DNA of 64,000 nucleotides, from contig CAYOFQ010000001.1 of assembly GCA_964403585.1 (NCBI GenBank), positions 443,364 to 507,363 on the forward strand. The letters are read 5' to 3'. The position numbers and the translations under genes are program-made. Each line of letters begins with the position of its first letter. Within the stretch, counting starts at the first letter, position 1. Positions 15,834 through 53,896 of the stretch are shown one piece after another. This stretch comes from an uncultured Gammaproteobacteria bacterium. GTDB lineage: Bacteria; Patescibacteriota; Microgenomatia; JALYQM01. The notes below the pieces were generated by a model that saw only the letters and a list, made by a program, of their open reading frames with translations, did not search any database and was not told where the DNA came from.

Positions 15834-16121
15834 TTATTTTGGTAAGCTGAAGTAAAAAACCGAACCTTTACCTTTCTCACTCTCAACCCAAATACGACCG
15901 TTATGGCGTAGCACTATTTCTTTGGCGATATATAAGCCCAGACCTAAACCCGGGTACGTTTTGGCTTTTGGATCGTTAACCTGATACAGCCGTTCAAAAA
16001 CCCGGTCTACTTTATCGTGCTCTATGCCGATACCAAAGTCTTTAACAGCAACCGTAATTTCAGAACCCGCATTACTGAGCGAAATAATAATCTTCTCGGT
16101 ACTGGGAGAATACTTAATGGC
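15834..16121 (-). pseudogene. 3' remnant of a sensor histidine kinase (HATPase_c domain only)
   Basis: Minus-strand frame reads …SNAGSEITVAVKDFGIGIEHDKVDRVFERLYQVNDPKAKTYPGLGLGLYIAKEIVLRHNGRIWVESEKGKGSVFYFSLPK* (G1 DxGxG and G2 GLGLGL boxes); no start codon, in-frame stop at 16122-16124; sensor and HisKA parts absent. Confidence 0.7.
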
Positions 16122-16321
16122 TTAACCGAACTTATCTTATTCAGCTTAATTTTATAGCCTGAATCACTGGCATTCGCTAATTCTCCTCGTATAGATTCCT
16201 CAGTAATGGAAGCGGTGGCAAAATCGACAGTTTGTGTAGCTTGACGATCAGCCGTGCAACCAACCAAGAAGAGTATTAATATAGGCACAAAAAGTGCTTT
16301 TTTAAGTATCTGAATTAACAT
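16022..16321 (-). CDS. Small lipoprotein-like ORF (uncertain; overlaps HK remnant in another frame)
   Basis: Signal peptide plus lipobox LFLVGC; the C-terminal half overlaps the histidine-kinase remnant, so it may be spurious or chimeric. Confidence 0.25.
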   Translation of the reverse strand: MLIQILKKALFVPILILFLVGCTADRQATQTVDFATASITEESIRGELANASDSGYKIKLNKISSVKPLSILPVPRRLLFRSVMRVLKLRLLLKTLVSA

Positions 16322-16444
16322 ATACTATCCTTTTTAAATAACTATAGGTTAATATATATTTTATACTATATATAAGGGATTATCAAGAGTAAATGTTAAG
16401 GATAATATGTTGTAGAAAACTGTAGAAAAATCCATAAATAAGCC

Positions 16445-16669
16445 ATGCTTTCAAGAACTAAGTTCATGGAAATAATGGGAAATAACATCAAAAGCGTACG
16501 TACAAAGAAGCGTATTTCTCAAGAAGAACTTTCAGCACAATGTGGGTTCTCTCGGACCTATATCAATCTCATCGAATCTGCCAAACTTACCCCATCCTGT
16601 TACAACGTATATCGTATTGCTAAGGCTCTCAATATCACAGTTGATGAGCTTTATCCGTCTACTGTCTAA
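16445..16669 (+). CDS. XRE-family HTH transcriptional regulator
   Basis: …ISQEELSAQCGFSRTYINLIESAKLTPSCYNVYRIAKALNITVDELY (HTH_3). Confidence 0.75.
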   Translation: MLSRTKFMEIMGNNIKSVRTKKRISQEELSAQCGFSRTYINLIESAKLTPSCYNVYRIAKALNITVDELYPSTV

Positions 16670-16703
16670 TCCTTGATATAATACAGCGAGAATTGAACGA
16701 AAA

Positions 16704-17072
16704 ATGAATAATTCGAACTTAAAACCATTCACAGTTAGGGATGATCCTCGAAGGCTTAATGGAAGACCAAAAGGAGCAAAAAACCTAAAAACAATCATTC
16801 GAGAGTTAGAGAATGAAGAGTTTGATTGGAATAAAATCCCGCAGCAGAGTAAAGGATTTAGTCACTATCTAAAAAGAGTTGGCTCTCCTTGGCGAGCCAT
16901 AGTAATGCGAGCAATGCTTGATGCCATTAACGGCAACAAAGATGCAAGAGAATGGCTTACAAAAATAGCTTTAGACGATAAAAGTCAAACCGAAATTGAA
17001 ACTCGAGAACCGATTATTATGAGCAATATTGAACCTAGATTCAATAACCTTAGCTGCCCAGATATCGATTAG
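16704..17072 (+). CDS. Hypothetical phage/island protein (GRPKGAKN motif)
   Basis: 122 aa; RRLNGRPKGAKN motif reminiscent of small phage DNA-binding proteins; no firm family. Confidence 0.4.
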   Translation: MNNSNLKPFTVRDDPRRLNGRPKGAKNLKTIIRELENEEFDWNKIPQQSKGFSHYLKRVGSPWRAIVMRAMLDAINGNKDAREWLTKIALDDKSQTEIETREPIIMSNIEPRFNNLSCPDID

Positions 17073-17074
17073 TT

Positions 17075-17821
17075 ATGACTATTCACTTTATCTACAAGAA
17101 AACAACCAAGTGGGGAATCATAACCGAACTCAGATATATAAATAGCTATGGCGAAATTTATGAAATTGATAAACATGCAATCGAAAAAGTAACATTTAAT
17201 TTTTTAAAAGCATTAATTAAAAATAAAAATTTCGTTCAGGAAATACGTAATATAAGAAAAAACTCAGCTATTCCGTTGGACGGATACGATATTTTAAATA
17301 AGCAAAATAACCCTGATGATAATAGGCCAGGCAAGTGGATCTCGGAATTAAGAAAAAAGATTGACGACAAACTTGTTTTAAAGCTAAAAAAAGACTATAG
17401 AATACCAAACATGTTATATTCTACTTTAAAGGATATAATTTTAATGAATATTGTCCACTTACCTCTTCCTAAAATAGCGTTAGATGTTCCATATATCGGT
17501 TATGAAAATGTTAATCCTGATGCAATAAAAATAGTCATTAATACAAAAGTTGATCCTAAAACATTACATAGATTTATAGATGACAATTGGGAGGATATAG
17601 AGCAAGCGCTTAATAAGGAAGAAAGTAGTGAGATTAAAATCTCTGATAAAGCTCTAAAAATTCTCGAAATGAAGGATAAGGGATTAACGTATACGCAAAT
17701 AATGGATAAATTAAACGAATCTGGACAAGGAGAATATTACGACTCTGGATCAGTTAAACAATTGAACTTTAGAACTAACAAGCAAATTAACTCTCTCTCT
17801 AGTAACAAAAAAAAGCGGTAA
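17075..17821 (+). CDS. Hypothetical Lys-rich island protein with C-terminal HTH-like segment
   Basis: Very AT-rich coding; C-terminal …ISDKALKILEMKDKGLTYTQIMDKLNE… resembles resolvase/sigma-type HTH. Confidence 0.4.
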   Translation: MTIHFIYKKTTKWGIITELRYINSYGEIYEIDKHAIEKVTFNFLKALIKNKNFVQEIRNIRKNSAIPLDGYDILNKQNNPDDNRPGKWISELRKKIDDKLVLKLKKDYRIPNMLYSTLKDIILMNIVHLPLPKIALDVPYIGYENVNPDAIKIVINTKVDPKTLHRFIDDNWEDIEQALNKEESSEIKISDKALKILEMKDKGLTYTQIMDKLNESGQGEYYDSGSVKQLNFRTNKQINSLSSNKKKR

Positions 17822-18069
17822 CATTTGTTACACCAACATAAATTACTCCCTTTAAACTTATTCTCAGGTAATGTGTACTGGAATGACAACCCAGCAAGCA
17901 AAAGAATTACTTAACAAAACGGGCGTTACACTTGATGACGAAGAAATAGAAAAAATCATCATTTGTTTCAATCAAATTATTGAAATTGGATTCGAATTGT
18001 ATGAAGCGCAACAAGTTGAAAAAGAATGATTATCTTGTAAATTTCATACCCTCGCTTGATAATGATGCC

Positions 18070-19653
18070 ATGAAAAAATACGCTATTGCGTACATACGAG
18101 TAAGCTCCGAAGAGCAAATCACTAACTTTAGTTTAGAAAATCAAAAAGAGTACTGTGTAAAAGAGGCTCATCGGCAAGGCTTCGAAATAGTGGAAATATT
18201 TAGAGAAGAAGGTGTAAGCGCAAAAGATCTAAATCGTCCTCAAATGATTCGTTTATTTGAATATTGCAGAAAATACAAGGGTAAAATTTCAACATTATTT
18301 ATTTACAAAATCGATCGAATTTCTCGTAATACTTTAGACTTCCTTTCTTTAAAGAAAAGATTAGCGGGATACGGAATAAGGGTCATCCCTGTTACCGAAC
18401 AAACCGAAGATAATCCGGCAGGTGAATTTATAGAAACTATGTTAGCAGCTAATGCCACTATGGATAATGCGACGAAAAGTATTCGTACATTAGATGGTAT
18501 GAAGAAGCGGGTCGAATCTGGATATGCTTTAGGCAGACCTAGAGTAGGTTATATTGTTTCAAATATAGAAGGTGACAAAGCTCATAATCCAGACCCTGAA
18601 CAATTTCATCTAGTTAAAAAGGCATGGATAGAAATGTCGACTGGAACATATACATTAGAATCCATAATTCCAGTAATGCAAAAACTTGGAATAGTAATAA
18701 AAATTGGAAATAGAAGAATACCTATAACTAGGAACCAACAAACACAAAGAATCTTTAGAGACAAATATTATGCAGGGTATGTGGTAAGTAATAAGTTCAA
18801 GATAAATAAAATTGGCAATCACTCGCCCATGATAAGTGAGGAATTATATTATAAAGTTCAAGGAATTATAGATAGGAGATCTTACTCTGCGGGTGTTAGC
18901 CATAATAAGCAAAACGAAGATTTCCCTTTAAGAGGCGTACTATGCGGTGAGTGCGGTAAACCAATGACAGGATCGTGGAGCCGGGGTAGAAAGAATAGGT
19001 ATGCGTACTATTATTGTGGTCAAGGTAGGCACAAGGCTCCATCAATTCCAAAAGATCAATTTGAGAGCGAGTTTGTCGACTGTTTACTGCAAATTCAACC
19101 CAAGAAAGAGTTTATATCTTTATTTAGTGCAATGCTAAAAGAAAAATGGGAAAGTAGATATCAGTATCTAAAGGACTTAAAAAAAGCTGCTGAAAGAGAA
19201 CTTGATGCATTGTATGAAGCACGGAGGAGACTTGTGGAGAAAAACCTGTCAGGCTTATATTCTGATGAAATTTTTCAAGAACAACTTACACTGATAGAAG
19301 ATCAAATATTAGTTAAAAAGATATCAAAATCTGAAACTGAGTTAGACGAGATTGATATAGATACTATTGTAAATTTTATGAATAATTTCTTAGCAAATAT
19401 TCATAAAGCATGGATCGATGGAAACTTATATCAGAAAAGAGTTCTATTCGGTTCTATATTCCCCAAAAACATTACTTACACAAAAGAAGGATATAGAACC
19501 ACGGAAATAGGGCTTCCATTCAGGTTAATCAGTGAATTGGAAGATACTTCTACCTCGTCGTGGGTCAACTGTTGGACAAACTTCGTACCTCCTTCGTACA
19601 GTATACTAGCCTCTATCCAATACCCTCCTACGCCCCAGTTGTATAACACGTAA
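18070..19653 (+). CDS. Large serine recombinase (integrase)
   Basis: MKKYAIAYIRVSSEEQ catalytic Ser motif, …IYKIDRISRN…, recombinase domain, CGECGKPMTG…YYYCG zinc ribbon, C-terminal coiled coil; the ORF extends upstream to 17980 but the catalytic motif favours the 18070 start. Confidence 0.8.
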   Translation: MKKYAIAYIRVSSEEQITNFSLENQKEYCVKEAHRQGFEIVEIFREEGVSAKDLNRPQMIRLFEYCRKYKGKISTLFIYKIDRISRNTLDFLSLKKRLAGYGIRVIPVTEQTEDNPAGEFIETMLAANATMDNATKSIRTLDGMKKRVESGYALGRPRVGYIVSNIEGDKAHNPDPEQFHLVKKAWIEMSTGTYTLESIIPVMQKLGIVIKIGNRRIPITRNQQTQRIFRDKYYAGYVVSNKFKINKIGNHSPMISEELYYKVQGIIDRRSYSAGVSHNKQNEDFPLRGVLCGECGKPMTGSWSRGRKNRYAYYYCGQGRHKAPSIPKDQFESEFVDCLLQIQPKKEFISLFSAMLKEKWESRYQYLKDLKKAAERELDALYEARRRLVEKNLSGLYSDEIFQEQLTLIEDQILVKKISKSETELDEIDIDTIVNFMNNFLANIHKAWIDGNLYQKRVLFGSIFPKNITYTKEGYRTTEIGLPFRLISELEDTSTSSWVNCWTNFVPPSYSILASIQYPPTPQLYNT

Positions 19654-19747
19654 TGCGCTCTCCTGCACAAAAGGGTTAAAGCGGGTGACAATGGATATAT
19701 CAGAAACGCCCTTGTTTGTTGATGCTTTACATAGTATTACAGAGTAA

Positions 19748-21487
19748 ATGAAGCTTCGTCATCTGTCGATTAAAAACTTTAGAGGTATAAAGACGCTCGA
19801 CTGGAATATAGCCGAAAGCTTCGTGTGCCTATTAGGTGCAGGCGATTCGACTAAATCAACCATCTTGCTAGCCATTGAATACGTGCTATACCCTAACTTC
19901 GCACTATATATCCAAGATGCCGATTTCCATAATCAAGAGGTTGACACTCCAATAGTTATCACCGCCACCATAAGTGATATCCCTGATGATCTTACTAACG
20001 AAAAGAAGTTTGGACTAAGATTAAGAGGCTGGAACCCTATTGATTACACTACTCATGATGAGCCCTTTGAAGGAGATGAAAAAGCGCTAACGATACAACT
20101 CCTAGTAAGCAGCACGTTAGAACCACACTGGAGTGTGATTACAGAAAGGCATGCAGAAGGAGCAGCAATATCACACATTGATAGAGAAAAGCTAGGTGCT
20201 TCTCCGATAGGAACATTTCTAGAACGAGATTTATCATGGTCAAGGGGATCACCTTTACTTCGTTTAACAGGTAATCTAGATAATGCGGATCAAATAATGT
20301 TGTCTGCACGAAGAGGCTTAGGTCAGAGCATGCTAGCCAATCAGCAGACGAAAACTTGGGTAGAACAATGTACAAGTATAGGAGAAGTCGCTAAATCTAT
20401 TGGTGTCCACCCTAAAAATAATCTTATACCATCCCTTGATTTTAAGTCACTTTCTAATCTAAACTCAACACTCACACTATATGATGGAAACATACCGACG
20501 CGACAATACGGGCTTGGGAGCAAACGACTTTTAAACATGTCGATTCAACAGCAAAGTGTAAGTAATGGTGCACTGATACTGGTGGATGAGATTGAACATG
20601 GGCTCGAACCGCATAGGTTAAGGCATTTAATAAGGTATCTTAGGAGATCCTTATCCATCGTCGATTCCACTCGTATCGGTCAGGTAATATTCACCACTCA
20701 TTCAAGTACAAGTATAGTTGAGAGCAAGGCTAAAGAGTTACACTGTGTTATAGATAATGAAGGTGAAATAACGATAGTACAAGTCGGACAATCAATTCAA
20801 GATAAGGTTAGGCGGTGTCCAGAAGCACTTCTAGGAAGGAAAATAGTTATAGGTGAAGGTAAAACTGAATTTGGTGTAATCCGAGGGCTTGATATTGCCT
20901 GGGAGGCAGACGGTGATACCTGCTTTGGTACTTTAGGTATTGTTCCAGTAGATGGTGGTGGTTATACAGTAGCGCCATCTATTGCTATTGAGTTCGCTAA
21001 ACTTGGTTATCAAGTAGCTGTAATGGTTGATAGTGATCAGTCTATAAGTGATGAGCATCGAAAAGGTATTGAACTCCATAAAATATGTTTAATAGAGTGG
21101 GAAGATAAAACTAGCATCGAAGAAAGATTCTTCTTAGATATGCCGTGGTCTATGGTAAAAGAAGAACTGAGATACATAATAGAGAATCACCCAGATACGA
21201 ATAGGCTAAGCATTATACAGGCCATTATGGTGCAGCTCAATATAACAGGGTCTCCTAAAGATTGGGATATAGACCTAAATCTATGGATTGATAAAGGAAA
21301 AGAGGAGAATGACTTAAGGATAGCACTCGGTAAAGCCGCACACAAAGGATCTTGGTATAAACACCCAAACACAGGCATAGATTTAAGCCAACCCTTAGGA
21401 CATAAAATTGGATTATCCTTACATGACATGAAGGGAACCGATACTTACAATAAACTACTTAAATTGAAACACTGGTTATATGAGTGA
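19748..21487 (+). CDS. gajA: Gabija GajA-like OLD-family ATPase/TOPRIM nuclease
   Basis: N-terminal MKLRHLSIKNFRGI, P-loop GAGDSTKST, Walker B/LH region LVDEIEHGLEPHRL, C-terminal TOPRIM IVIGEGKTEFGV…VAVMVDSDQ; 579 aa; 8-bp overlap with the downstream helicase gene. Confidence 0.75.
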   Translation: MKLRHLSIKNFRGIKTLDWNIAESFVCLLGAGDSTKSTILLAIEYVLYPNFALYIQDADFHNQEVDTPIVITATISDIPDDLTNEKKFGLRLRGWNPIDYTTHDEPFEGDEKALTIQLLVSSTLEPHWSVITERHAEGAAISHIDREKLGASPIGTFLERDLSWSRGSPLLRLTGNLDNADQIMLSARRGLGQSMLANQQTKTWVEQCTSIGEVAKSIGVHPKNNLIPSLDFKSLSNLNSTLTLYDGNIPTRQYGLGSKRLLNMSIQQQSVSNGALILVDEIEHGLEPHRLRHLIRYLRRSLSIVDSTRIGQVIFTTHSSTSIVESKAKELHCVIDNEGEITIVQVGQSIQDKVRRCPEALLGRKIVIGEGKTEFGVIRGLDIAWEADGDTCFGTLGIVPVDGGGYTVAPSIAIEFAKLGYQVAVMVDSDQSISDEHRKGIELHKICLIEWEDKTSIEERFFLDMPWSMVKEELRYIIENHPDTNRLSIIQAIMVQLNITGSPKDWDIDLNLWIDKGKEENDLRIALGKAAHKGSWYKHPNTGIDLSQPLGHKIGLSLHDMKGTDTYNKLLKLKHWLYE

Positions 21488-22895
21488 AAACAGTATAGAG
21501 ACTATTATTAACGCTAAACGTGCTGCAATAGTAGCACCTGCTGGTTGTGGAAAGACTGAAACAATAGTAAAAGCTGTCGCAATTTCACCAGGAACGCAAC
21601 TTGTACTAACACATACTCATGCTGGTGTCGATTCACTTCAAAATAGGTTTAAAAAACATCAAGTAAATCACGAAAAATACAGGGTAGACACAATAGCAGG
21701 ATTCGTAACACGTTATATAGAAGCATATCCTGTCATGAGTGGCTGGATTGAAGTTAAGGGAGAGAAGAATAACTGGAACTATATGTATGAAGCTATGTCA
21801 CAATTGCTAGTTAATAGCATCATAAGGAAAGTTATACAGCGAACATATCAAGGTATATATATTGATGAATACCAGGATTGCACCTTAAGACAGCATTTTG
21901 TGTGTGATCAACTCGCCAACATCATACCATGCAGAGTCTTCGGAGACCCCTTGCAAGGGATTTTTGATTTTAATGATCAAATAGTCCAATGGGACACACA
22001 TGTATTTTCGTCATTCGACAAACTTGTTGAGTTGCAAACGCCTTGGAGATGGTACAAGTCGACAAATGAACCTGACAAGAGACTCGGGAATTGGCTGCTT
22101 GACTGTAGAGAGCATCTACTAAATGGCTGGCCAATAGACCTACAGCAAGCGCCACGAGATTCAGTTACCTGGGTAGATTCGAGTAAGGATGGGTATCTGT
22201 CTCTTATTCGGCAGTGTCGTCTATTGTTAAATGTTAGTGGGAACGTTATGGTTTTATTGAATCAGGATAAACAGTGCCATAGTCTGGCTCGTAGCCTTAG
22301 TGGAAAGTATCAATCAATGGAAGAAATGGAGTCGAGAGCACTTAAAAAATATAGTAAGCTACTTGATGATACTACGGGCCAAAAGCGGGTTTGTGTCATC
22401 ATAGATTTTGCTGTCGAATGCATGACCGAATCAACAGTATTAAAAAAAATACGCGAAGCTTTTATTGAAGGCAAACAATACAAGCTGCAAAAGAAGTATC
22501 CTCAACTTTTAATCCACCTTGAAGCTGTAATAGCTGCTGACAGCTGGTCGAATGTTCTTGCTGCTATTGATGGAATAGCTGCCTACATTAACGGTAACAT
22601 TTTTCGTAGAGAACTATGGAGTGAAATGAAACGAGCTTTGTTGTATGCAGAACAAAACCAGTCAACAAGCTTGCAGGAGAGTGCAGAATATGTAAGGGGC
22701 AGAACACGACTAATAGGTAGGTACATGCACTCACATATGATGTCACGCACTCTTTTGATTAAAGGACTTGAGTTTGATCATGTTGTTATTGCTGATGCTG
22801 AAAGCATGAATAAAGAAAATTTGTACGTTGCGCTTACACGGCCTAAGCATCAGCTTATAATCTTATCCAAAACTCCTATGCTACAGCCAAGGTAG
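21480..22895 (+). CDS. gajB: Gabija GajB-like UvrD-family helicase
   Basis: Walker A APAGCGKTE, IYIDEYQD (motif II), FGDPLQGIF, C-terminal VALTRPKHQLIILS; 471 aa. Confidence 0.7.
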   Translation: MSENSIETIINAKRAAIVAPAGCGKTETIVKAVAISPGTQLVLTHTHAGVDSLQNRFKKHQVNHEKYRVDTIAGFVTRYIEAYPVMSGWIEVKGEKNNWNYMYEAMSQLLVNSIIRKVIQRTYQGIYIDEYQDCTLRQHFVCDQLANIIPCRVFGDPLQGIFDFNDQIVQWDTHVFSSFDKLVELQTPWRWYKSTNEPDKRLGNWLLDCREHLLNGWPIDLQQAPRDSVTWVDSSKDGYLSLIRQCRLLLNVSGNVMVLLNQDKQCHSLARSLSGKYQSMEEMESRALKKYSKLLDDTTGQKRVCVIIDFAVECMTESTVLKKIREAFIEGKQYKLQKKYPQLLIHLEAVIAADSWSNVLAAIDGIAAYINGNIFRRELWSEMKRALLYAEQNQSTSLQESAEYVRGRTRLIGRYMHSHMMSRTLLIKGLEFDHVVIADAESMNKENLYVALTRPKHQLIILSKTPMLQPR

Positions 22896-23890
22896 TGCGC
22901 AATCTCTATTCCATATCTTCCTATGCTCCAGTGGTATAGCACCACCCCGGTAGACACCCCCAAATATACAAAAACGGGTCAGGCCCCTCGACTTACTATA
23001 TAAAACACAAGCACCCACCCCCGCCTTAAGTACTGGTACCTCTTTAGAAAGACGGTACTATCCACTACCATAATGTTATATTAGGGAGAGGAGTGTCAAA
23101 CGATTGTTTAGATTGGATCAAAATACAGCAGAAGTTATCCTGGGATACCCCGGCTGAGCCCAGAAAAAGAACTGAGTTCAAATACGGGAAAACTTCGGTT
23201 GTTTCTATATCAAACTATATCACATCGAAGTTTGGTATCTTGCGGATAACCAGAGCTTGTTTATCGGTACAGCTGCTAATCAAACCTATGTTCCTTTAGA
23301 TGCGGTGGGATGAAACTCGGGGTTCTGCATTTTTCGCCCGTCCTTAGCTCTGAGTTCTTACAACGTTTTGTTGCGTCCCCGGCATAGCTTTGCCGTAAAG
23401 GCTAACTCAGGTCAGATAGCCACTATCCACTCACAAGATTCAACTCTAACCATCAACTGCTTTTGCAGTATCCCAGTCGGGTGACACTTCTGCCATTATT
23501 CCACTTTGCTAGAGTTGCTGTCGGTCCTGTTTATCCCGTCATGCACCGAATGTTGGACGGATCTAAAGTGCTTGTTTCCGTTTAAGATTTGGGGGCGGTT
23601 GTCGTTATCTGCTATCGGAGAAAAGTCAGGTATCGTCGGGGACAACCATTCATGTTTATGAAGATAACTTAGCATACACTCTGGAAGATGTCAAAATGGG
23701 ATAGTCATAACAAGCGATTGTTGTAGTTTCGGCTTCGTTTTGCCTTCATCAGATAAGGATTCGTTGAACCTTATAACTACCTCCCTACTACCTAGCGCAA
23801 ACATTGTCTTTAAAATCATGGTGCCACAAGGGCGACCACAACTCAAAACTTTGTCTGCGGTAAGCAGTAGGGAGGCAGTCAGATCAAATC

Positions 23891-24337
23891 CTAGCCGCAG
23901 CTCGTGACCTCGACTGTGAAGTCGGTGCCAGGGAGACGGCCACTCGGCGCGGTGAAGGCGACGGAGATACCGTAGTCGTTATCGGAAACGAACGAGATCC
24001 GGTCAGCGGATGCGCCGCGCACGGGGAACGGAGAGTCGAGCTGGTACAGCGGGAAGTCGCTTGTCATGCGCTTGGCCTTCACGCCATTGACGCTGAACGG
24101 TGACAGCCCGGTGTAGTTAGCCATCACTGGCTTAGTGTGGCCGGTGATGAGCACCTCGTCGCCCGTATGAAGTGATTGGTCGATGCGGGGCGCAGCGGCC
24201 GCCGTAGGGTCGTTCGTCAGGGTTGTGATCGTTGTCGGGCAACCGCCACCGCCGTCAGCGAGTGCCGAGGGGGCGAAATACACAGCCGACGCGGCGAGCA
24301 TGGCGATGAGCGACAGGGTTGCGATGAGCTTACGCAT
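23891..24337 (-). CDS. Secreted hypothetical protein, GC-rich xenolog
   Basis: Signal peptide MRKLIATLSLIAMLAASAVYFAPSALA; coding sequence visibly GC-rich relative to flanks. Confidence 0.55.
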   Translation of the reverse strand: MRKLIATLSLIAMLAASAVYFAPSALADGGGGCPTTITTLTNDPTAAAAPRIDQSLHTGDEVLITGHTKPVMANYTGLSPFSVNGVKAKRMTSDFPLYQLDSPFPVRGASADRISFVSDNDYGISVAFTAPSGRLPGTDFTVEVTSCG

Positions 24338-25392
24338 TGTTATCTCCTTGTGGTATTGAACTCAAAGACAGACGTTAGAAAGCAGGAGTGCTTCCTAGTT
24401 GCGGCATACGCAACCTTTCTGACCTATTTTCATAGGCTTTCTCTTTACTATTTGGGACACTTCAGATAGAAACAGAGCAGTTTTTATCTCAAATGTCCCA
24501 ACTAGTTAGGGAGGACTTATCTTCCTATTGCTTACATAGATAGTAGGGAATTGTTGGAGCTTTGAACTTATTATGCTTTACCTCTAAGGCGATGATTGGG
24601 CGTCTATTTGGCTTAGCAAGCTCAAGGCTCCAATTTTCCCTACTAAAATAGTTTTAAGGTACTAGCTTACTTGAAGTAAGCTTAGCTCATAAGAATTATG
24701 CTCAGAGTGAGCCTAGTTGCTTTACGAGCAGCCTATATAATACCACATCTCATCAAAAAATACTATAGGATATAATACATAGAGTATAAAATATACTCAT
24801 TTAAACTATTGATTGTTCGCTATCGGTTACTTGAAGTATTTGCTGTAGCAGGCATTTTGTTCGCTACTAATTGAACTTGTACACGCACTTATGCATGTTG
24901 TGTCACGCTACAACCTTTGTCACACTCATCCACTTTTCTCTTGGCATCACTCAATCACATGTCATAGAGAAGGTTCTTTACGTGTCCTATTTCACGCTTG
25001 CCAATATTATTGCAGCACTTAAAGCTGATCCCCAAGACATTCTTCCGCTCGCGTAGTATTACCTATTGACTATCATCAGTCCTCTTAGTACCCTAGCAAC
25101 AATTAAGAGAAAAAGATCCGGCAAGAGTTACATCTGAATACATTGCGTACTAATTCTTCCTAAACAGCAGAACAACCTAGGCGTCCATACACTTGAACGC
25201 GCGAAGGGGGGAAACCTTAATACCAGTACTGTTTAGTTGCAAGAGGTGTACTTCTCATTAAAAGCATCGCGTTACAGACACGCGTTGGAGAAGTATGCCT
25301 CTTTTTTGTTATTTCCGCCTCACGCCTTACAGTTGTCATGATCCTCCCTAAGTCATTGTGCTGCTTATTTTTATCACTACGAAAGGGCATAT

Positions 25393-25806
25393 ATGAAAAA
25401 TAGTACATGTGTTATTTACCTCAGAACTTCAAATCCAGAAGAGTCGTCATACGACGCTCAACAAAAGATCTGCGAAAAGTATGCTCGAGAGCACAGAATG
25501 TCCGTAAGGGCTGTGTTTAAAGATGAGACATCGACGATAAGAATACAACAAAGCGCAGTGTTTAATGAGATGCTTAAATTCATCGAAGATCACCAGATCG
25601 ACCATATCGTGGTTGCACATGCTGATAGACTAGCGCGTAAGCTGATAGATGCAATATTGCTTGATGAGTTAGTTGCATCAAAGGGAGCCTCCATCAAAGC
25701 TGTGGAACACTTCAAACGATCTGTAAAAGAAAGATATATCGTACATTCGCTGCTTGCAGATTATTATGCAACACAATTACAGGATAGAAACGAGGTGAGC
25801 ATTTAG
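25393..25806 (+). CDS. Serine recombinase catalytic-domain-only protein (truncated resolvase)
   Basis: CVIYLRTSNPEES…HIVVAHADRLAR resolvase N-domain; no DNA-binding domain; 137 aa. Confidence 0.55.
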   Translation: MKNSTCVIYLRTSNPEESSYDAQQKICEKYAREHRMSVRAVFKDETSTIRIQQSAVFNEMLKFIEDHQIDHIVVAHADRLARKLIDAILLDELVASKGASIKAVEHFKRSVKERYIVHSLLADYYATQLQDRNEVSI

Positions 25807-26169
25807 TGTGCTAGTTATGAAGGGGGTCAGAGTAAGCTACTTCTCTGACCCTTATGATCGTACTGTAGCTTTTACTGAAAAAGATAGCCTCTGGCAGTGC
25901 GGATAGTTGATCTTGAAACATAATAAGTCCAAGCGTAACTCGTAACAGTATTAAGCGTGTACTTCTCTTTTCGTTATTTTCAACGCAATAAGGAGTACAT
26001 TACATGTTTACCGACGAAGAGTTATCTCGTTTCCGTGAACTATATCTTCTACATCACGGAACATTATTGTCAGAAGAAGAAGCGTTAGCTATCGCTACAC
26101 CCCTCAGTGAATGCTTTAAGGCCATTGCGAAACCATTTATACGGCCATACAATGCAAAGGAGAAACAAA

Positions 26170-27966
26170 ATGATGAATGAAATAGAACAGCCAGTAGAAT
26201 ATAAACGTCGTTCCAGTGATGACGATCATCAGATCGCAAGCATACCTTCTCAAGAGCGGGCTTTGAGAGACGGTATCCCCAACTATTCAAAGCTTGCATT
26301 TATAAAAAAGTTTGAGGAGAGTAAATCAGCTAAGAAACCAGGTAGACCATTCTTTAATGAGATGGTCGAGTTGCTTGAGTCGGGCAAAGCAAAGAGCATT
26401 GTGGTGTGGCATCTTAACCGCCTTGCACGTAACCCTGTTGATGGTGGACGCATAATCTGGGTAGTACAAAATTACGGTGTAAAGATTCACACGCCAGGCA
26501 AGACGTATACAAAGGACGAGCTTATTCTGTTGTATGTCGAGTTTGGCATGGCTAATCAATTTATCAACGATTTGCAGAAAACAACGAAGCGGGGACTAGA
26601 AGATAAAGTCTTATCAAAGCAAGCACCACAACTCGCTCCAGTAGGATACCTCAACAACACACTAAAGCGGCAAGGGGAACGTGACATTATTTCAGATGAA
26701 AAGCGATTTAATACGGTGAGAAAGATGTGGGACCTACTTCTCTCGGGCAACTACAACCCAAAGCAGATCTTCCTTATTGCAAAGGACGAGTGGTGCTTTA
26801 CTTGTAAAGACGGTCATCCTCTTTCTCGTTCCCGAATTTACGAGATGTTTCGAAACCCTTTCTATATGGGCAGGTTCAAACGGAATGGCGAAGTGCATGA
26901 CGGTACTCATCCACCGATGGTCACACCTCATGAGTTTTCATTAGCACAAAAGATTTTAGATGGTCATGGCAGACCACGAAAACGCACCAGAGAGATTATC
27001 TATAATCCACTTTTAAAATGTACTTGCGGTTCCAGTGTAACAACGGAAGAACGTTACCGTAAAATCTGCCCATCGTGCCATCACAAATACAATGCAGAAG
27101 TACACGCAAAGTGTCCAAAATGCCTTACAAAGGCTCCAGAAAAGACAACCCACTTCGCATACTGTCACTGTGATAGAGGCAGAGATAGCTCATGCACACA
27201 GCCACATATAACGATCAAAGACCTTGAAAAGCAGATTGATGAACTATTATCAACTATCGAGATACATCCAGATTTTGTTAAATGGGCGATGGATCACTTG
27301 CGGAGAGTTAACGCAGAAGAGGGGAGCTTTGTTCAATCAAAGCTCTCTTCTCTCAATGACCGGATCGTAGCTATTACACGACTTGAAACATTGTTGTTTG
27401 AAAAGTGGGCGAGTGAATCAAACGCTGATGGCAGCCTTATCTCTGATGAGCAATATAAAACACGCAAGAACAACTACGCAGACGAAAAGAAAACCTTACA
27501 CGAACAACTTAATGCTACGCATTACAGTCATGACAACTGGCTCGAAACAGCAGAGAAGACTTTTGTGTTTGCACGAAACGCCCGTTACTGGTTTGCACAA
27601 GGAGACAAGATTCAGAAGAGAGCAATCATACAAGCACTTGGTTCGAACCTGATACTAAAAGATCGAAAACTGCATTTAGATCTGCAAAAACCCTTACAGT
27701 ACATCCAAGAAGCGAAGATTCTGATCGAGTCGGCAAATGATAACTTCGGACCCGCAGATAGTGTAGTAATAAAGGGAAAAAAGTCTGATTTAGACTTTGA
27801 AAATCTCGTTGGGGGTGATCGACGGGATTCGAACCCGCAACCAGCAGCTCCACAAACTGCTGCTCTACCATTGAGCTACGACCACCATAAGTTCACAAAA
27901 AGCCCAGATTTCGGGCTGAACTCACGTGAGAGTATAACAAAATTCCGGGCTAAAGTATATATTTGA
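26170..27966 (+). CDS. Large serine recombinase (integrase) adjacent to tRNA-His
   Basis: MMNEIEQPVEYKRRSSDDDHQ…SIPSQERA catalytic region, VVWHLNRLARN, recombinase domain, Cys-rich zinc-ribbon region (CTCGS…CPSCHH…CPKC), C-terminal coiled coil; the ORF has no stop until 27966 and reads through the antisense tRNA-His, so the true C-terminus is probably near 27800; the upstream 26107 start is probably over-called. Confidence 0.75.
   Translation: MMNEIEQPVEYKRRSSDDDHQIASIPSQERALRDGIPNYSKLAFIKKFEESKSAKKPGRPFFNEMVELLESGKAKSIVVWHLNRLARNPVDGGRIIWVVQNYGVKIHTPGKTYTKDELILLYVEFGMANQFINDLQKTTKRGLEDKVLSKQAPQLAPVGYLNNTLKRQGERDIISDEKRFNTVRKMWDLLLSGNYNPKQIFLIAKDEWCFTCKDGHPLSRSRIYEMFRNPFYMGRFKRNGEVHDGTHPPMVTPHEFSLAQKILDGHGRPRKRTREIIYNPLLKCTCGSSVTTEERYRKICPSCHHKYNAEVHAKCPKCLTKAPEKTTHFAYCHCDRGRDSSCTQPHITIKDLEKQIDELLSTIEIHPDFVKWAMDHLRRVNAEEGSFVQSKLSSLNDRIVAITRLETLLFEKWASESNADGSLISDEQYKTRKNNYADEKKTLHEQLNATHYSHDNWLETAEKTFVFARNARYWFAQGDKIQKRAIIQALGSNLILKDRKLHLDLQKPLQYIQEAKILIESANDNFGPADSVVIKGKKSDLDFENLVGGDRRDSNPQPAAPQTAALPLSYDHHKFTKSPDFGLNSRESITKFRAKVYI
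27810..27886 (-). tRNA. tRNA-His (GTG) with encoded G-1 and CCA
   Basis: Minus strand G-GTGGTCG…anticodon loop TTGTGGA (GTG)…T arm GGTTCGAATCC…CGATCAC-C-CCA; full cloverleaf pairs by hand. Confidence 0.85.
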
Positions 27967-49087: not shown

Positions 49088-49321
49088 ACGGACAGTATAT
49101 CAAGTTTCACGAAACACAACCCGGGAATAACAGCACAACATAGCTCAAAAAGTAAAAACAATCTCTCGCATCACTGCAAGAAAAGCTTCACTGTTCTGAT
49201 CTCGTGTACCGTTTATTGTGTTCCGTTTTCCGTAGGGAGGGCACGCGAAGCGCGGCGTGTGTGCATCGCGCACCCTCCCTGCTTACATGCCTATGGCTCC
49301 GTCATCGGTCGCGTGGTTTGA

Positions 49322-50317
49322 TTATCGTTTCTCGTAGGTGACCGTCTCGTCGTCGTCGAAGGGAGCCCCGCCGCCCGCATCGAACTCGCGCTTGAGTTCC
49401 TCGATACGAGCGATCGCGCCCTTGATCAGCTGCTTGGGATCAGCGCCGATCAAGTTGATGCCGGGTATCAACCCCAGCACCAGGCCACTAATCATATCGA
49501 TCAGCTCTTGGTCGGTCACCCCTGCCGCAAGCATGCCGAGCAGCTCGAAGAGGCCGGCCATCATGAGCGAATCCGCGCTCGTGCCACCCATGTTCTCAAG
49601 GGTTAGCATAAGGTTGGTATTGCCTTTGAACGACGTAAGGGCGAGCACGATCCGCCGATCTGTTCCCAGCCGCGGCTGCATGGCCCACGTCCTCGTTTCC
49701 GCACCGAGAACACTGTCCCCGATCCGGAGGCGGTAGTCATACGCGTTCTCGCTACCGTCGACGAGGCTTCCAGTCCAGCGCGCGATGCGCCTAAGATGAG
49801 AGGATTGCTGGCCGAACAGGTCATGGGTATCGTCCGCGAGGAGCATGAGCGCGAACTCGATCGGGTGCATATTCTGCACCTGCTTGAGGTCGCGCTGTGC
49901 TCCCGCCAGTTCGGCAGTAATCTCTTCAACCTGCGCCTCCAAGCCGGGCACGCGGTTTGCCTCCGAACGGGCTTCTTCCAGCAACATAGTCGTCGATTGG
50001 TGAGCTTCGATCGCAGCCGTATGGGTGGCTTGCAGCTGTTCTAGCTCTTGGGCCAGTTGCTGACGTAGCTCCTCAGCTTCCCGAGCTGCGGTGTCCGCCT
50101 GCTCAATTCGCTGGTTCAACTCCTGGTTGGTGGCCGTGAGCTGAGCGTTCGCTGTGGCCAGCTGCTCATTCGTGGTGGCGAGCTGCGCCTCGGCGGTAAC
50201 AGCCGCATCCAGCAGCTGCCGCAGCTTGAGAACCATCCCTTTCAGGGTGTCACGCTGTCTCCACAGCGGCCCTCCTAGTGCGTCGATATTCGTATTCCGT
50301 ACGTCAAGTTCTGACAT
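49322..50317 (-). CDS. GC-rich coiled-coil protein (xenolog-like), unknown function
   Basis: N-terminal heptad-rich LATTNEQLATANAQLTATNQELNQ… coiled coil; coding region visibly GC-rich with multi-frame shadow ORFs typical of high-GC DNA. Confidence 0.5.
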   Translation of the reverse strand: MSELDVRNTNIDALGGPLWRQRDTLKGMVLKLRQLLDAAVTAEAQLATTNEQLATANAQLTATNQELNQRIEQADTAAREAEELRQQLAQELEQLQATHTAAIEAHQSTTMLLEEARSEANRVPGLEAQVEEITAELAGAQRDLKQVQNMHPIEFALMLLADDTHDLFGQQSSHLRRIARWTGSLVDGSENAYDYRLRIGDSVLGAETRTWAMQPRLGTDRRIVLALTSFKGNTNLMLTLENMGGTSADSLMMAGLFELLGMLAAGVTDQELIDMISGLVLGLIPGINLIGADPKQLIKGAIARIEELKREFDAGGGAPFDDDETVTYEKR

Positions 50318-50695
50318 GATCCGTGTCCTTGTCTACTATTCGATTCTTCCGTCATACTCATGCGTGTCCTTACGTAAAAGCCCTACGTTCGTACGTCCTT
50401 CTAGGGGAGTTTCCTCCTTCCTAGCTAGTCGCGGATCCAATGCACTTCTCAAGAGAAGTACTTTCTAAGCTCAAAACTCTAGCCTACAAAGTACCTCTCT
50501 TGAAAGTTTGGAAAATAAAACACAATAAATTCCCGGGTTGTTAAAGAACAAAATGGGCATGTTGCCCATCGTCGCTGCGATACATGATTCCCGTAGGAAA
50601 CCGTTCGCAAAGACGCAGTATTTTATATCATAATCTTAATCGATAGTCAATACTATAGGATAGGTTTGTTGATATTTAACAATTGAATTATTGAC

Positions 50696-52907: not shown

Positions 52908-53603
52908 TTACGGCTGTAGTAGCAAAACCAAGGTGACGATCGCGACTACGACCAATACCAGGTAGATAGTGATCGAGGCCAACGCCGATATCCGGGATAA
53001 TGATTTGTCCTGGCGGTTGCCCTCGACGTTTGCGACGCCGAGAATGAGCTGTACACCCATCAGGTATACGAACACCCACCAGGGCACCACACTGAGCCAG
53101 TAGAGCGCAATGATTGCCGAAATCGAGAAGATGGTCAGCAAGCAAGATAATGGTCGGTTACTGCCGATTAAAGCACGCAGAACACGTCCACCGTCAAGCG
53201 GGCTGATTGGAATCAAATTCAATAACACGAGTTGGGCATTGAGAGTGCCCACCATAATACTGAGTTTGTTCCACTCCGCGATTTCCGACAGGCGAATGCA
53301 CACCAGGCACACGAGAATGTTCATAAATGTACCGGCCAAAGAGAAGGCGAGATCCTCACCACGAGTAATCTCGTACATTACCTCCTCAGCTTTCTCAGGC
53401 ACCACAACAGCGCCCAGCGGCGGCACAAAGATCATCCACGCCTTGTATCTGAAGGCTCGTAACACTAGCCAATGGCCAAGCTCATGAATGAAGAGCGTCG
53501 CAACAATGACGTTGGCCATAACAGGATCACCAGTCAGGTACCTGAACACCAGAATTGAGAGTGCGGCCGACGCGATCGCGGTGAAGGATTTTTTAAGGTG
53601 CAT
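52908..53603 (-). CDS. M50 (site-2 protease-like) metallopeptidase, GC-richer paralog
   Basis: HELGHW HExxH motif in TM helix, LIPISPLDGGRVL motif; start MHLKK (53603); alternative upstream start at 53672. Confidence 0.6.
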   Translation of the reverse strand: MHLKKSFTAIASAALSILVFRYLTGDPVMANVIVATLFIHELGHWLVLRAFRYKAWMIFVPPLGAVVVPEKAEEVMYEITRGEDLAFSLAGTFMNILVCLVCIRLSEIAEWNKLSIMVGTLNAQLVLLNLIPISPLDGGRVLRALIGSNRPLSCLLTIFSISAIIALYWLSVVPWWVFVYLMGVQLILGVANVEGNRQDKSLSRISALASITIYLVLVVVAIVTLVLLLQP

Positions 53604-53896
53604 CTGTCCCTCGCTACTAAAAACGGTTAATACTTGGTGGTGATACTTACTACCTAAACAACTATGTAGCAAATATCACCACCAAAAGTTCGTGAAATTA
53701 AAGTGCAGGTTGAGCTGAAACGAGCACAAAGTACTGATTGCAGCTGGGGGTATTATAGCACAAAATAGGTATAAAGTAAAATACTATAGGTTAGTAAGTG
53801 AGGCGCAAAATTAACCAATCATTTTGAGAAAAAGGCTTAATAAGAATAAAAACGTTAAAATAAGCAAATTAAGGGGCAGTTCCCTGCTTTTAGCCA

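Follow-up and report, generated by a model that had tools for sequence, protein, structure and literature searches.

A GC-rich orphan gene behind a folded AT-rich leader in the integrative/defence island of a Patescibacteria-like bacterium

What is the origin of a short GC-rich gene that lies in DNA of much lower GC content, and does its composition mark a transfer from a high-GC donor? The gene considered here (gene 1) lies at 23891..24337 on the minus strand of a 64-kb stretch of DNA (the window, 64,000 nt), exactly where a sequence-only reading had placed an ORF for a 148-aa precursor. Its GC content is 0.633 (GC1 0.577, GC2 0.537, GC3 0.785), against 0.429 for the window and 0.35 to 0.43 for the neighboring genes. 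The claim that it is unusually GC-rich is borne out: GC3 lies at z=+7.1 relative to the bulk (0.414 +/- 0.052, maximum 0.492; 63 nonoverlapping ORFs), the synonymous-codon log-likelihood under host usage at z=-6.9, and the tetranucleotide distance at z=4.9, second among 450-nt windows, with gene 2 (see below) first. Recoding of the protein with host codon usage still gives a GC content of 0.506, so that protein composition and synonymous sites both contribute; the GARP/FYMINK ratio of the protein ranks 4 of 63, a GC-type amino acid composition. A GC-rich run that the earlier reading quoted is present at 24243-24275, with its first two letters differing. A two-change-point likelihood fit located the GC-rich segment at 23894-24323, within the coding sequence (CDS). 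The flanks, at 0.44 and 0.38, are lower in GC than the gene, as had been stated, but they are host-typical and not especially AT-rich. The GC-rich segment thus ends abruptly at the CDS, with no donor-type flank, whereas a random foreign fragment would be expected to look different.

Gene 1 is a genuine protein-coding gene: the order GC3>GC1>GC2 and a dN/dS of 0.18 against its only homologue demonstrate coding constraint. That homologue is a protein with 74% identity from an unrelated run (ERR8482628, locus L002), and its gene is also GC-rich, lies in low-GC flanks, and follows the same AT-rich leader. About 145 nt of the proximal leader are 85% identical between the two loci, while only 41% of fourfold synonymous sites are. 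The dS between the two copies is ~1.07, which indicates that a GC-rich CDS behind an AT-rich leader predates the split from L002 and is not recent; judged by this divergence, the chimeric architecture is old. Homology between the two loci ends at the stop codon and the 3' context differs, a pattern that a cassette within a variable region would produce.

We consider the chances somewhat better than even (roughly 55%) that the CDS was acquired in ancient times from an unsampled GC-rich source and kept as a moron-like accessory cassette. Acquisition would have preceded the divergence from the organism of L002; if decay toward host composition has been under way since, the fourfold sites would have started from a GC of about 0.9. 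The acquired CDS, the only part of the unit with a foreign composition, would have been placed behind a resident-type AT-rich leader, and purifying selection may then have preserved it among the accessory genes of a variable integrative/defence island. Foreign ancestry would be the simplest cause of the composition. Of the earlier claim of foreign acquisition, the outlier composition stands; the donor does not, since a homologue from a GC-rich organism was found in none of the collections searched, and the dS speaks against a recent arrival.

These searches were extensive. No homologue of gene 1 was detected in GC-rich organisms among 5.8 billion protein clusters and 1.84 billion representatives (exhaustive scan), and none in 185,579 species-representative genomes or in the viral, phage, and plasmid collections IMG/VR, INPHARED, and PLSDB. 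An exhaustive HMMER search returned two weak multi-repeat matches to Bacteroidota SprB/Ig-repeat adhesins, which we judged to be compositional. The genomes in which the gene was not found include the three closest relatives, metagenome-assembled genomes with 78%, 78%, and 64% PriA identity, so that its distribution appears to be patchy and accessory. With no homologue in GC-rich organisms, the case for a horizontal origin is one of composition and distribution. PriA similarity, with the closest sequences found among deep Patescibacteria-like lineages, places the source organism there.

The gene is part of a unit of ~1 kb (23756-24769, minus strand) in which a promoter-like 11-mer would be followed by a folded AT-rich leader of 421 nt, a ribosome binding site, the GC-rich CDS, and a large 3' hairpin. 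The 11-mer, CCTATAGTATT (24759..24769, minus strand), contains a TATAGT box resembling a -10 element and may act as a promoter or operator; a promoter scan upstream from gene 1 returned TTTATA-17-TATAGT, with a weak -35 element. The distal leader (24531..24758, minus strand) is highly structured (z=-4.2 and -5.1), and the proximal leader (24338..24530, minus strand) folds into four hairpins (z=-5.6). Structure stops at the 11-mer, with z=+0.4 to +1.4 in the upstream region 24770-25169. The Shine-Dalgarno motif AAGGAG, read from the sequence, lies 6 nt upstream from the ATG (24344..24349, minus strand). Starting from the stop codon, a near-perfect hairpin of 137 nt (inverted repeat I1; 23756..23892, minus strand; z=-8.15) is a putative terminator or 3' stabilizer without a U-tract, and it is not conserved in L002. 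The combination of a -10-like element, structure beginning after it, a ribosome binding site, and a 3' hairpin suggests that the unit is autonomous. The CDS itself has no excess mRNA structure over synonymous shuffles (z=-0.4), and selection for a specific mRNA fold within it is therefore unsupported. The proximal leader occurs once in the window, and the conserved leader was absent from metagenome contigs (two patterns) and viral contigs (one pattern). It matched no Rfam family; a permissive scan gave only a spurious miRNA (E=0.15), and a scan at gathering thresholds gave only three tRNAs.

Gene 1 probably encodes a secreted protein. By rule-based inspection, its N terminus consists of MRK, a 19-residue hydrophobic core (LIATLSLIAMLAASAVYFA), and PSALA|D, which agrees with a Sec/signal peptidase I substrate in its charged n-region, h-region, and AxA at -3/-1; the cleavage motif is kept in the L002 homologue (ASA|D). 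The signal peptide would comprise aa 1-27 (nt 24257-24337, minus strand), with Sec export and cleavage after Ala27 predicted. A bacterial lipoprotein was rejected: the LPAM_1 match was far below threshold (E 0.28), and the lipobox [LVI][ASTVI][GAS]C is absent, Cys33 being preceded by G-G-G. The mature protein (121 aa, 12.6 kDa, pI 4.8) is acidic and all-beta, and a moderately confident AF2 model (pLDDT 66) has eight strands, consistent with a beta-sandwich whose termini could be stapled by Cys33, near the mature N terminus, and Cys147, near the C terminus. No family was assigned in Pfam, NCBIfam, PADLOC, or PHROGs or among PDB sequences, and Foldseek with the model gave no match at E<=1e-3. 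Similarity scores to GOLD-like domains, carbohydrate-binding modules (CBMs), PirA, prophage XepA/YomS, and Ena/DUF3992 were generic for the fold class. An identity as an Ena/DUF3992 disulfide-linked appendage subunit was rejected, with neither a DUF3992 sequence-family match nor a specific structural match, and small jelly-roll or beta-sandwich extracellular proteins likewise gave no sequence-family match. The product is most probably an extracellular, nonenzymatic binding or surface-modifying protein, which might, for example, keep out phage or competitors or mediate attachment.

As the earlier reading held, gene 1 lies in an island. This integrative/defence island spans approximately 16022..27886, a left boundary drawn from a drop in GC and from gene content only, and carries an ORF for a lipoprotein (16022-16321, minus strand), an XRE helix-turn-helix regulator (16445-16669), serine recombinases (17980-19653; 25393-25806, truncated; 26107-27966), a Gabija system (GajA, 19748-21487; GajB, 21480-22895), and a linked tRNA-His (27810-27886, minus strand). 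Gene 1 is convergent with GajB and divergent from the recombinase genes. All recombinases in the window are serine-type Resolvase-domain proteins. Genes for capsid, tail, terminase, or lysis proteins were not found in the island, its ORFs of unassigned function have no PHROGs matches, and no direct repeat of tRNA-His marking the other end was detected. GC varies from 0.30 to 0.63 across the island, and this mosaic composition, together with the genes present, suggests that DNA from several sources accreted there.

Two further GC-rich genes, also pointed out by the sequence-only reading, bear on the origin of gene 1. Gene 2 (49322..50317, minus strand; GC 0.60, GC3 0.72, z=+6.0) encodes a 331-aa orphan protein with an N-terminal coiled coil, which matches only itself in the database apart from weak profile matches of the coiled-coil type. 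Gene 3 (52908..53603, minus strand; 231 aa from the ATG at 53603) lies in a longest ORF that extends to 53672 (52908-53672, minus strand; GC3 0.62, z=+3.9); its product matches Pfam Peptidase_M50 at 1.7e-15, has an HELGH motif, and resembles M50-family intramembrane metalloproteases, with a best non-self homologue of 33% identity. For neither gene was a close homologue or a donor found. What is new here is that all three GC-rich genes share CCTATAGTATT, long structured leaders, and large 3' hairpins. The second copy of the 11-mer (50649..50659, minus strand) lies 331 nt upstream from the gene 2 ATG, in an extended match, TATCCTATAGTATT, identical to that of gene 1; the third (53780..53790, minus strand) lies upstream from gene 3. 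The gene 2 leader folds at z=-5.6 (50318-50617), and that of gene 3 (53604-53779) at z=-4.3 and -4.4. A GC-rich 3' hairpin of gene 2 (49234..49280, minus strand) lies inside the GC-rich segment 49230-50285 and has the motif TAGGGAGG in common with the gene 1 hairpin. No other noncoding DNA in the window is as structured as the flanks of the three genes; beyond an 11- to 14-mer, their leaders and hairpins have no common sequence.

The copy number of CCTATAGTATT was dropped as evidence because 62 other 11-mers also occur at least three times, and it was replaced by a test of intergenic triples: among 3,276 such triples, the one preceding genes 1, 2, and 3 is the only one that shares an 11-mer. 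A shared 11-mer and structured untranslated regions would not be predicted by simple independent transfers; they point to a common regulatory or architectural logic. CCTATAGTATT was absent from the relatives' loci that were compared. A generic promoter was rejected as an explanation, because the CC and ATT flanks are missing at ordinary -10 boxes, which lie 12 to 60 nt from start codons. Read on the plus strand as AATACTATAGG, the site presumably resembles a promoter of a T7-like single-subunit RNA polymerase. This reading was also rejected: such a promoter would point away from all three genes, only 11 to 14 nt are conserved, and there is no such polymerase in the window. A variant of the motif at 16341-16348 precedes the low-GC lipoprotein ORF of the island, so that GC-rich genes are not alone in having it.

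The common architecture raises the possibility that genes 1 to 3 are a resident, lineage-specific, coregulated set in which GC-richness is actively maintained. GC-rich codons could serve very stable mRNAs or a translation gated by rare GC-ending codons, the latter in a genome that could have a reduced tRNA set. Besides the identical 11-mer, with its distinctive flanks, and the exceptional structure around the three genes, the behavior of gene 1 over time is in keeping with maintenance: GC3 is 0.74 to 0.79 in both copies despite a dS of ~1.07, the GC/AT differences between them are symmetric (22 versus 16), and the GC-rich segment coincides with the CDS. At 71 shared fourfold sites, decay from a GC4 of 0.92 (lnL -182.24) and a stationary GC4 of 0.70 (lnL -182.51) fit equally well, so that the two are indistinguishable and GC-richness may have been maintained. 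The CDSs of genes 2 and 3 have a modest excess of structure (z=-2.9 and -3.2), but that of gene 1 has none. Against maintenance, neither the closest relatives nor any database yielded the genes, unlike a conserved regulon; the motif variant also precedes a low-GC ORF; only three genes in 64 kb make up the sample; and we know of no mechanism that would hold individual genes at a GC3 of ~0.78 when the genome is at 43% GC. We regard this explanation as unlikely. We are similarly doubtful of a broader formulation, in which the three genes would not be unrelated transfers but instances of one undescribed unit type of a Patescibacteria-like lineage, with a common promoter or operator, a very long folded leader, and a large 3' hairpin, either a mobile single-gene cassette or a "GC-coded" regulon whose CDS GC-richness is maintained and whose expression could be gated at the level of mRNA stability or codons.

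A less probable explanation still is that the three units are copies of an undescribed mobile single-gene cassette, with a cargo CDS set between the motif plus folded leader on one side and a large hairpin on the other, that inserted at different chromosomal sites; integron cassettes and cargo-carrying MITEs would be loose parallels. The same architecture does occur at three loci, one in the island and two elsewhere, one of these beside tRNA-Tyr and tRNA-Thr; TAGGGAGG is common to two of the hairpins; the gene 1 block has different 3' contexts in two genomes; and a 14/16 inverted repeat (23860-23875 / 24520-24535) brackets the gene 1 CDS and proximal leader. Against this, the leaders and hairpins have no sequence in common beyond 11 to 14 nt, and the 3' hairpin is missing in L002. 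A candidate shared terminal motif, CCTCCCTNNTGCTTAC, was not above chance (with mismatches allowed, 6 found versus 3.1 expected), no target-site duplications were identified, and neither an integron integrase nor a transposase adjoins the units, only serine recombinases being present near gene 1.

The earlier reading suggested acquisition from a high-GC donor, for example, an actinobacterial host if the organism is an episymbiont, which is taken here as a recent, direct transfer. A GC3 of 0.78 and a codon choice typical of a genome with ~60 to 65% GC are what such a donor would leave, the organism is Patescibacteria-like by PriA similarity, and some Saccharibacteria, within the Patescibacteria, live on Actinobacteria. 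All collections searched nevertheless lacked an actinobacterial or other GC-rich homologue; the sole relative of gene 1, at a dS of ~1.07, lies in low-GC DNA behind the same leader; donor-type flanking DNA is absent; and genes 2 and 3 have no donors either. The best match to gene 1 thus belongs to the organism's own kind, contrary to the proposal, and we consider a recent transfer very improbable. An artefact, either an assembly chimera with a read from a GC-rich organism or a noncoding GC-rich patch with a chance ORF, might be suspected from the abrupt GC step at the ORF ends and the orphan protein, but it can practically be dismissed, because an independent Logan assembly of SRR16481187 (L001) reproduces both junctions exactly, the unrelated run shows the same architecture, and the gene is under coding constraint.

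The preferred reading, an ancient acquisition kept as an accessory cassette, invites comparison with phage morons, among whose products small exported proteins are common. Gene 1 is likewise a single accessory gene that would make up a unit of its own within an integrated mobile element, with a GC content sharply unlike that of its neighbors, a predicted promoter, a 3' hairpin, and a small product predicted to be exported. Morons are defined by a difference in GC content together with a promoter and terminator of their own; an example is gene 15 of HK97, whose product, gp15, acts for the host cell (Cumby, Davidson and Maxwell 2012, PMC3594210). Gene 1 differs in that structural and lysis genes of phages are missing from its island, which therefore cannot be called a prophage with confidence, in its exceptionally long, folded leader, and in having sister units outside the island that carry the same 11-mer.

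Orphan genes of tRNA-linked islands are a second point of reference. At face value, an orphan gene of foreign composition is an ordinary thing to meet in a genomic island, and gene 1 resembles such genes in its GC3 and codon usage, the recombinases and adjoining tRNA, its apparently patchy distribution, and the lack of an assignable function. It differs from them in that the CDS, and nothing outside it, has a foreign composition, conservation of the adjacent AT-rich leader exceeds that of the gene, GC3 is ~0.75 in two copies at a dS of ~1, and very large databases hold no donor lineage. Lawrence and Ochman reportedly provided the classical amelioration framework for such compositionally atypical acquired genes; for gene 1, composition alone can establish neither date nor source. 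Our results remove an attractive story that lacked support: nothing found here points to a transfer from an actinobacterial host to an episymbiont.

Like an integron cassette (ORF plus attC), gene 1 is an ORF followed by a long imperfect palindrome of 100 to 140 nt, found in different contexts; a promoter-like element and a long leader, both present in the gene 1 unit, are however normally missing from integron cassettes. An attC site was rejected as an identity for the 3' hairpin, since the window contains no IntI tyrosine recombinase and the hairpin has no paired R''/R' core sites (RYYYAAC ... GTTRRRY); the lone GTTGAAC in it, at 23763-23769, is expected by chance. If the association of the 11-mer, leader, and hairpin with GC-rich genes holds genome-wide, a poorly known bacterial lineage would have either an expression system dedicated to genes of foreign type or a new cassette type, and a structured leader, conserved but unclassified, would become available for study.

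The 148-aa open reading frame (ORF) at 23891-24337 on the minus strand (gene 1) was found at exactly the position reported by the sequence-only reading, with a GC content of 0.633 (GC1, 0.577; GC2, 0.537; GC3, 0.785) against 0.429 for the window. Relative to 63 non-overlapping ORFs of the window, with bulk GC3 computed without the three GC-rich genes (0.414 ± 0.052; maximum, 0.492), the z score of its GC3 was +7.1, and that of its synonymous-codon log-likelihood under host usage was −6.9. When the protein was recoded with host codon usage, GC fell to 0.506; amino acid composition and synonymous sites thus both raise the GC content of the gene, which ranked fourth of the 63 ORFs in GARP/FYMINK. 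The two other genes said to share this look are true outliers as well: gene 2 at 49322–50317(−) (GC3, 0.72; z = +6.0) and gene 3 at 52908–53672(−) (GC3, 0.62; z = +3.9). Tetranucleotide usage deviated more at gene 2 (z, up to 5.4) and gene 1 (z, 4.9) than anywhere else in the window. A two-change-point likelihood fit placed the GC-rich segment at 23894–24323, within the gene 1 coding sequence (CDS); the flanks have GC contents of 0.44 and 0.38, and no donor-type DNA surrounds the segment. Bulk genes of the host have about 50% GC at fourfold-degenerate sites against an overall GC3 of 0.41, so low host GC3 comes mostly from twofold codon families, a gap relevant to any amelioration modelling.

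Gene 1 is real. GC3 > GC1 > GC2 is the signature expected of a true frame, an independently made Logan assembly from a different run (contig L001) contains both junctions without a base difference, and a third run shows the same architecture around a 74%-identical protein (contig L002), the only homologue, with a dN/dS of 0.18 (dN, 0.19; dS, 1.07). Independent assemblies and coding constraint together exclude a chimera and a chance ORF. The N terminus (MRK, a 19-residue hydrophobic core, and PSALA↓D) is, judged by inspection, a putative Sec/signal peptidase I pattern, and the AxA motif is kept in the homologue (ASA↓D). A lipobox was rejected because Cys33 is preceded by G-G-G. The mature protein has 121 aa (12.6 kDa; pI 4.8), is rich in T/G/S/D/P/A, and carries one Cys at each end.

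We favour, with a probability of about 0.55, a reading in which gene 1 would be the cargo carried by a self-contained, moron-like accessory unit: an unsampled GC-rich source would have supplied its CDS in the distant past, purifying selection would now keep it inside a variable island, and its product would be an exported small β-sandwich working at or outside the envelope. The published definition of morons (PMC3594210) asks for a GC difference, which the gene 1 unit displays; its own promoter and terminator are predicted only. The definition also places morons in phage genomes, and since none was recognized around gene 1, we call the unit moron-like rather than a moron. As a foreign-looking orphan in an island, gene 1 is an ordinary kind of feature. 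The one unexpected link, of possible genome-wide relevance, is the association of genes 1 to 3 with a shared 11-mer and structured flanks.

This promoter- or operator-like element, CCTATAGTATT, has three exact copies in the window, all on the minus strand and each upstream of one GC-rich minus-strand gene (24759–24769, gene 1; 50649–50659, gene 2; 53780–53790, gene 3); genes 1 and 2 have the 14-mer TATCCTATAGTATT in common. Copy number is no evidence here, since 62 other 11-mers also occur at least three times in the window, and a positional test was used instead: among the 3,276 possible triples of the 28 intergenic regions measuring 60 nt or more, no triple other than the 5′ regions of genes 1 to 3 had an 11-mer in common. 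A TATAGT −10-like box forms part of the element; its distance to the start codon is 430 nt in gene 1, 340 nt in gene 2, and 116 nt in gene 3. Ordinary −10 boxes here (TATAAT, TATACT, TATAGT, often TGn-extended) have no CC and ATT flanks and are found at 12–60 nt from start codons. Its 8-mer core has two extra copies, one inside a CDS and one 25 nt upstream of the island's low-GC lipoprotein ORF at 16022-16321(-), where the sequence is TAACCTATAGTTAT, a close variant of the 11-mer; the motif is thus not exclusive to GC-rich genes. At gene 3, the 11-mer is followed 22 nt downstream by a canonical extended −10 box, TGTGCTATAAT. The longest ORF of this gene (254 aa; region 53604-53672(-)) starts inside a 21-bp perfect hairpin of the leader, and the ATG at 53603 (231 aa, the database protein) is the more plausible start.

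The leaders, the noncoding DNA between 11-mer and start codon, were folded against shuffled controls. In the gene 1 leader, the z score was −5.6 for the proximal part, with its four hairpins, and between −4.2 and −5.1 for the distal part; the leaders of genes 2 and 3 gave −5.6 and −4.3 to −4.4, with control intergenic regions mostly between −2 and +1. Just upstream of gene 1's 11-mer the z score was +0.4 to +1.4, so that structure starts where the putative transcript starts. Directly after the gene 1 stop codon lies a 137-nt near-perfect hairpin (z = −8.2), and a 47-nt GC-rich hairpin 3′ of gene 2 is part of that gene's GC-rich segment. In the two leader sequences, window and L002, changes fall mainly in loops or linkers or are wobble compatible, with one disruptive stem change; a pair of sequences is too small a set to prove covariation. 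The leader matched no Rfam family, and no further copies were found in metagenome or viral contigs.

These shared features are the ground for the main rival, in which the three units follow a common logic and GC-richness is maintained rather than inherited. GC-rich boundaries exactly at the CDS, persistence of high GC3 over a dS of about 1, the 11-mer, and the structured untranslated regions argue for it, against an orphan, patchy distribution, a small sample, and a gene 1 without CDS-level structure: compared with synonymous shuffles, the gene 1 CDS showed no excess folding (z = −0.4), and genes 2 and 3 showed a modest excess (−2.9 and −3.2; controls, −2.3 to +2.1). We regard this explanation as doubtful overall, unlikely in its regulon form, and decidedly improbable in its cassette-type variant.

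Several smaller features mark the DNA around gene 1. The proximal leader at 24338-24530(-), matching L002 1-180, has four hairpins and is better conserved than the CDS, although conservation is lost in the 30 nt adjoining the main ATG. Within this leader, a short upstream ORF begins with MKIG(Q/W)KGCV, with a perfect AAGGAG before the L002 copy, whose frame is shifted after codon 9 by a 1-nt indel, so that its conservation looks nucleic acid level rather than peptide level. TAGGGAGG occurs five times against about one expected (at 23780, 23868, 24507, 25343, and 49233), four times inside 1.6 kb around gene 1 and once in the 3′ hairpin of gene 2; an extended motif was not above chance with mismatches allowed. 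Gene 1 and its proximal leader stand between the arms of a 14/16 inverted repeat (23860-23875 / 24520-24535), and these repeats could reflect 5′-3′ UTR pairing or cassette ends.

The age of the arrangement bears on the preferred reading of an old acquisition. Over about 145 nt of the AT-rich leader (GC, 0.40), the window and L002 show 85% identity, against 41% at fourfold synonymous sites of the CDS. The homologue is also GC-rich (GC, 0.618; GC3, 0.743) among neighbours with GC3 of 0.34–0.37. Homology ends at the stop codon, beyond which lie the hairpin and a convergent GajB gene in the window versus a DUF4145 gene in L002. Since both copies join a conserved AT-rich leader to a GC-rich CDS, the chimera predates their divergence at dS ≈ 1.07, contrary to a recent acquisition. 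On 71 shared fourfold sites, decay from an ancestral GC4 of 0.92 toward the host value of 0.50 (lnL, −182.24) fitted about as well as stationarity at 0.70 (−182.51).

The closest PriA proteins belong to MAGs at 78%, 78%, and 64% identity, followed at about 42% by Saccharibacteria, Parcubacteria, and other Patescibacteria; loci from the three closest relatives have a GC of 0.40–0.41. Gene 1 defines a new protein family with two members, itself and P0002, among 5.8 billion protein clusters; exhaustive HMMER against 1.84 billion representatives added two weak matches to repetitive SprB/Ig adhesins, which we regard as compositional. No relative was found in 185,579 species-representative genomes or in IMG/VR, INPHARED phages, or PLSDB plasmids. 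Gene 2 matched only itself, the best non-self match of gene 3 had 33% identity, and in all collections searched no GC-rich donor, actinobacterial or other, could be named for the three genes. Best matches of gene 1 thus fall to the organism's own kind, the outcome that the sequence-only reading had itself named as counting against foreign origin; its observation of GC-rich genes held, and its interpretation only in part, with compositional and codon outliers on one side and no homologue from any GC-rich organism in these collections on the other. Recent transfer from an actinobacterial host, for which no positive evidence emerged, is very improbable.

The surroundings of gene 1 form an integrative/defence island adjoining tRNA-His (27810–27886), with serine recombinases at 17980–19653, 25393–25806(+) (truncated), and 26107–27966(+) (large) and a complete Gabija pair at 19748-22895(+) (GajA, 579 aa, PADLOC E 8e-157; GajB, 471 aa, E 6e-139). 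The GajA and GajB genes share 8 nt and run convergently to gene 1. Domain and PHROGs annotation revealed no phage structural genes. DUF4145 domains are often near restriction or abortive-infection genes, and directly downstream of the gene 1 homologue (L002 674-985) is a DUF4145 protein (E 6e-12); with Gabija here, both family copies thus sit beside defence-type genes. GC in the island ranges from 0.30 (17075–17821) to 0.63 in gene 1, so that DNA from several sources must have collected there. The stretch at 16700-19650 (GC, 0.30-0.36; gene GC3 z, −2.1 to −2.6) holds a serine recombinase and two ORFs (122 and 248 aa) without family match, and together with gene 1 brings the number of distinct compositions in this mosaic island to at least three. 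At its left end, a small lipoprotein ORF (16022-16321(-); lipobox LVGC) is divergent from an XRE/Cro-type HTH ORF (16445-16669; HTH_3, E 8e-12).

The 137-aa ORF at 25393-25806(+), directly upstream of the large recombinase, has an N-terminal resolvase catalytic domain only and is probably a truncated recombinase or a small resolvase/invertase. The large recombinase ORF (26107-27966(+)) runs through the antisense of tRNA-His (27810-27886(-)), its last ~50 codons being the tRNA complement and DNA beyond, which suggests an attachment site inside its 3′ end; a search for a direct repeat of tRNA-His that would mark the opposite end of the island found none. On either side of gene 1 (22896-23890 and 24338-25392), about 1 kb lacks convincing ORFs, which is unusual in an otherwise tightly packed genome; beyond the leader and hairpin, these stretches may hold pseudogene remnants or small RNAs. 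Elsewhere in the window, an 823-aa sigma-70 family protein (37360-39831(+)) matches RpoD models only in its C-terminal ~140 residues and has a very long N-terminal extension.
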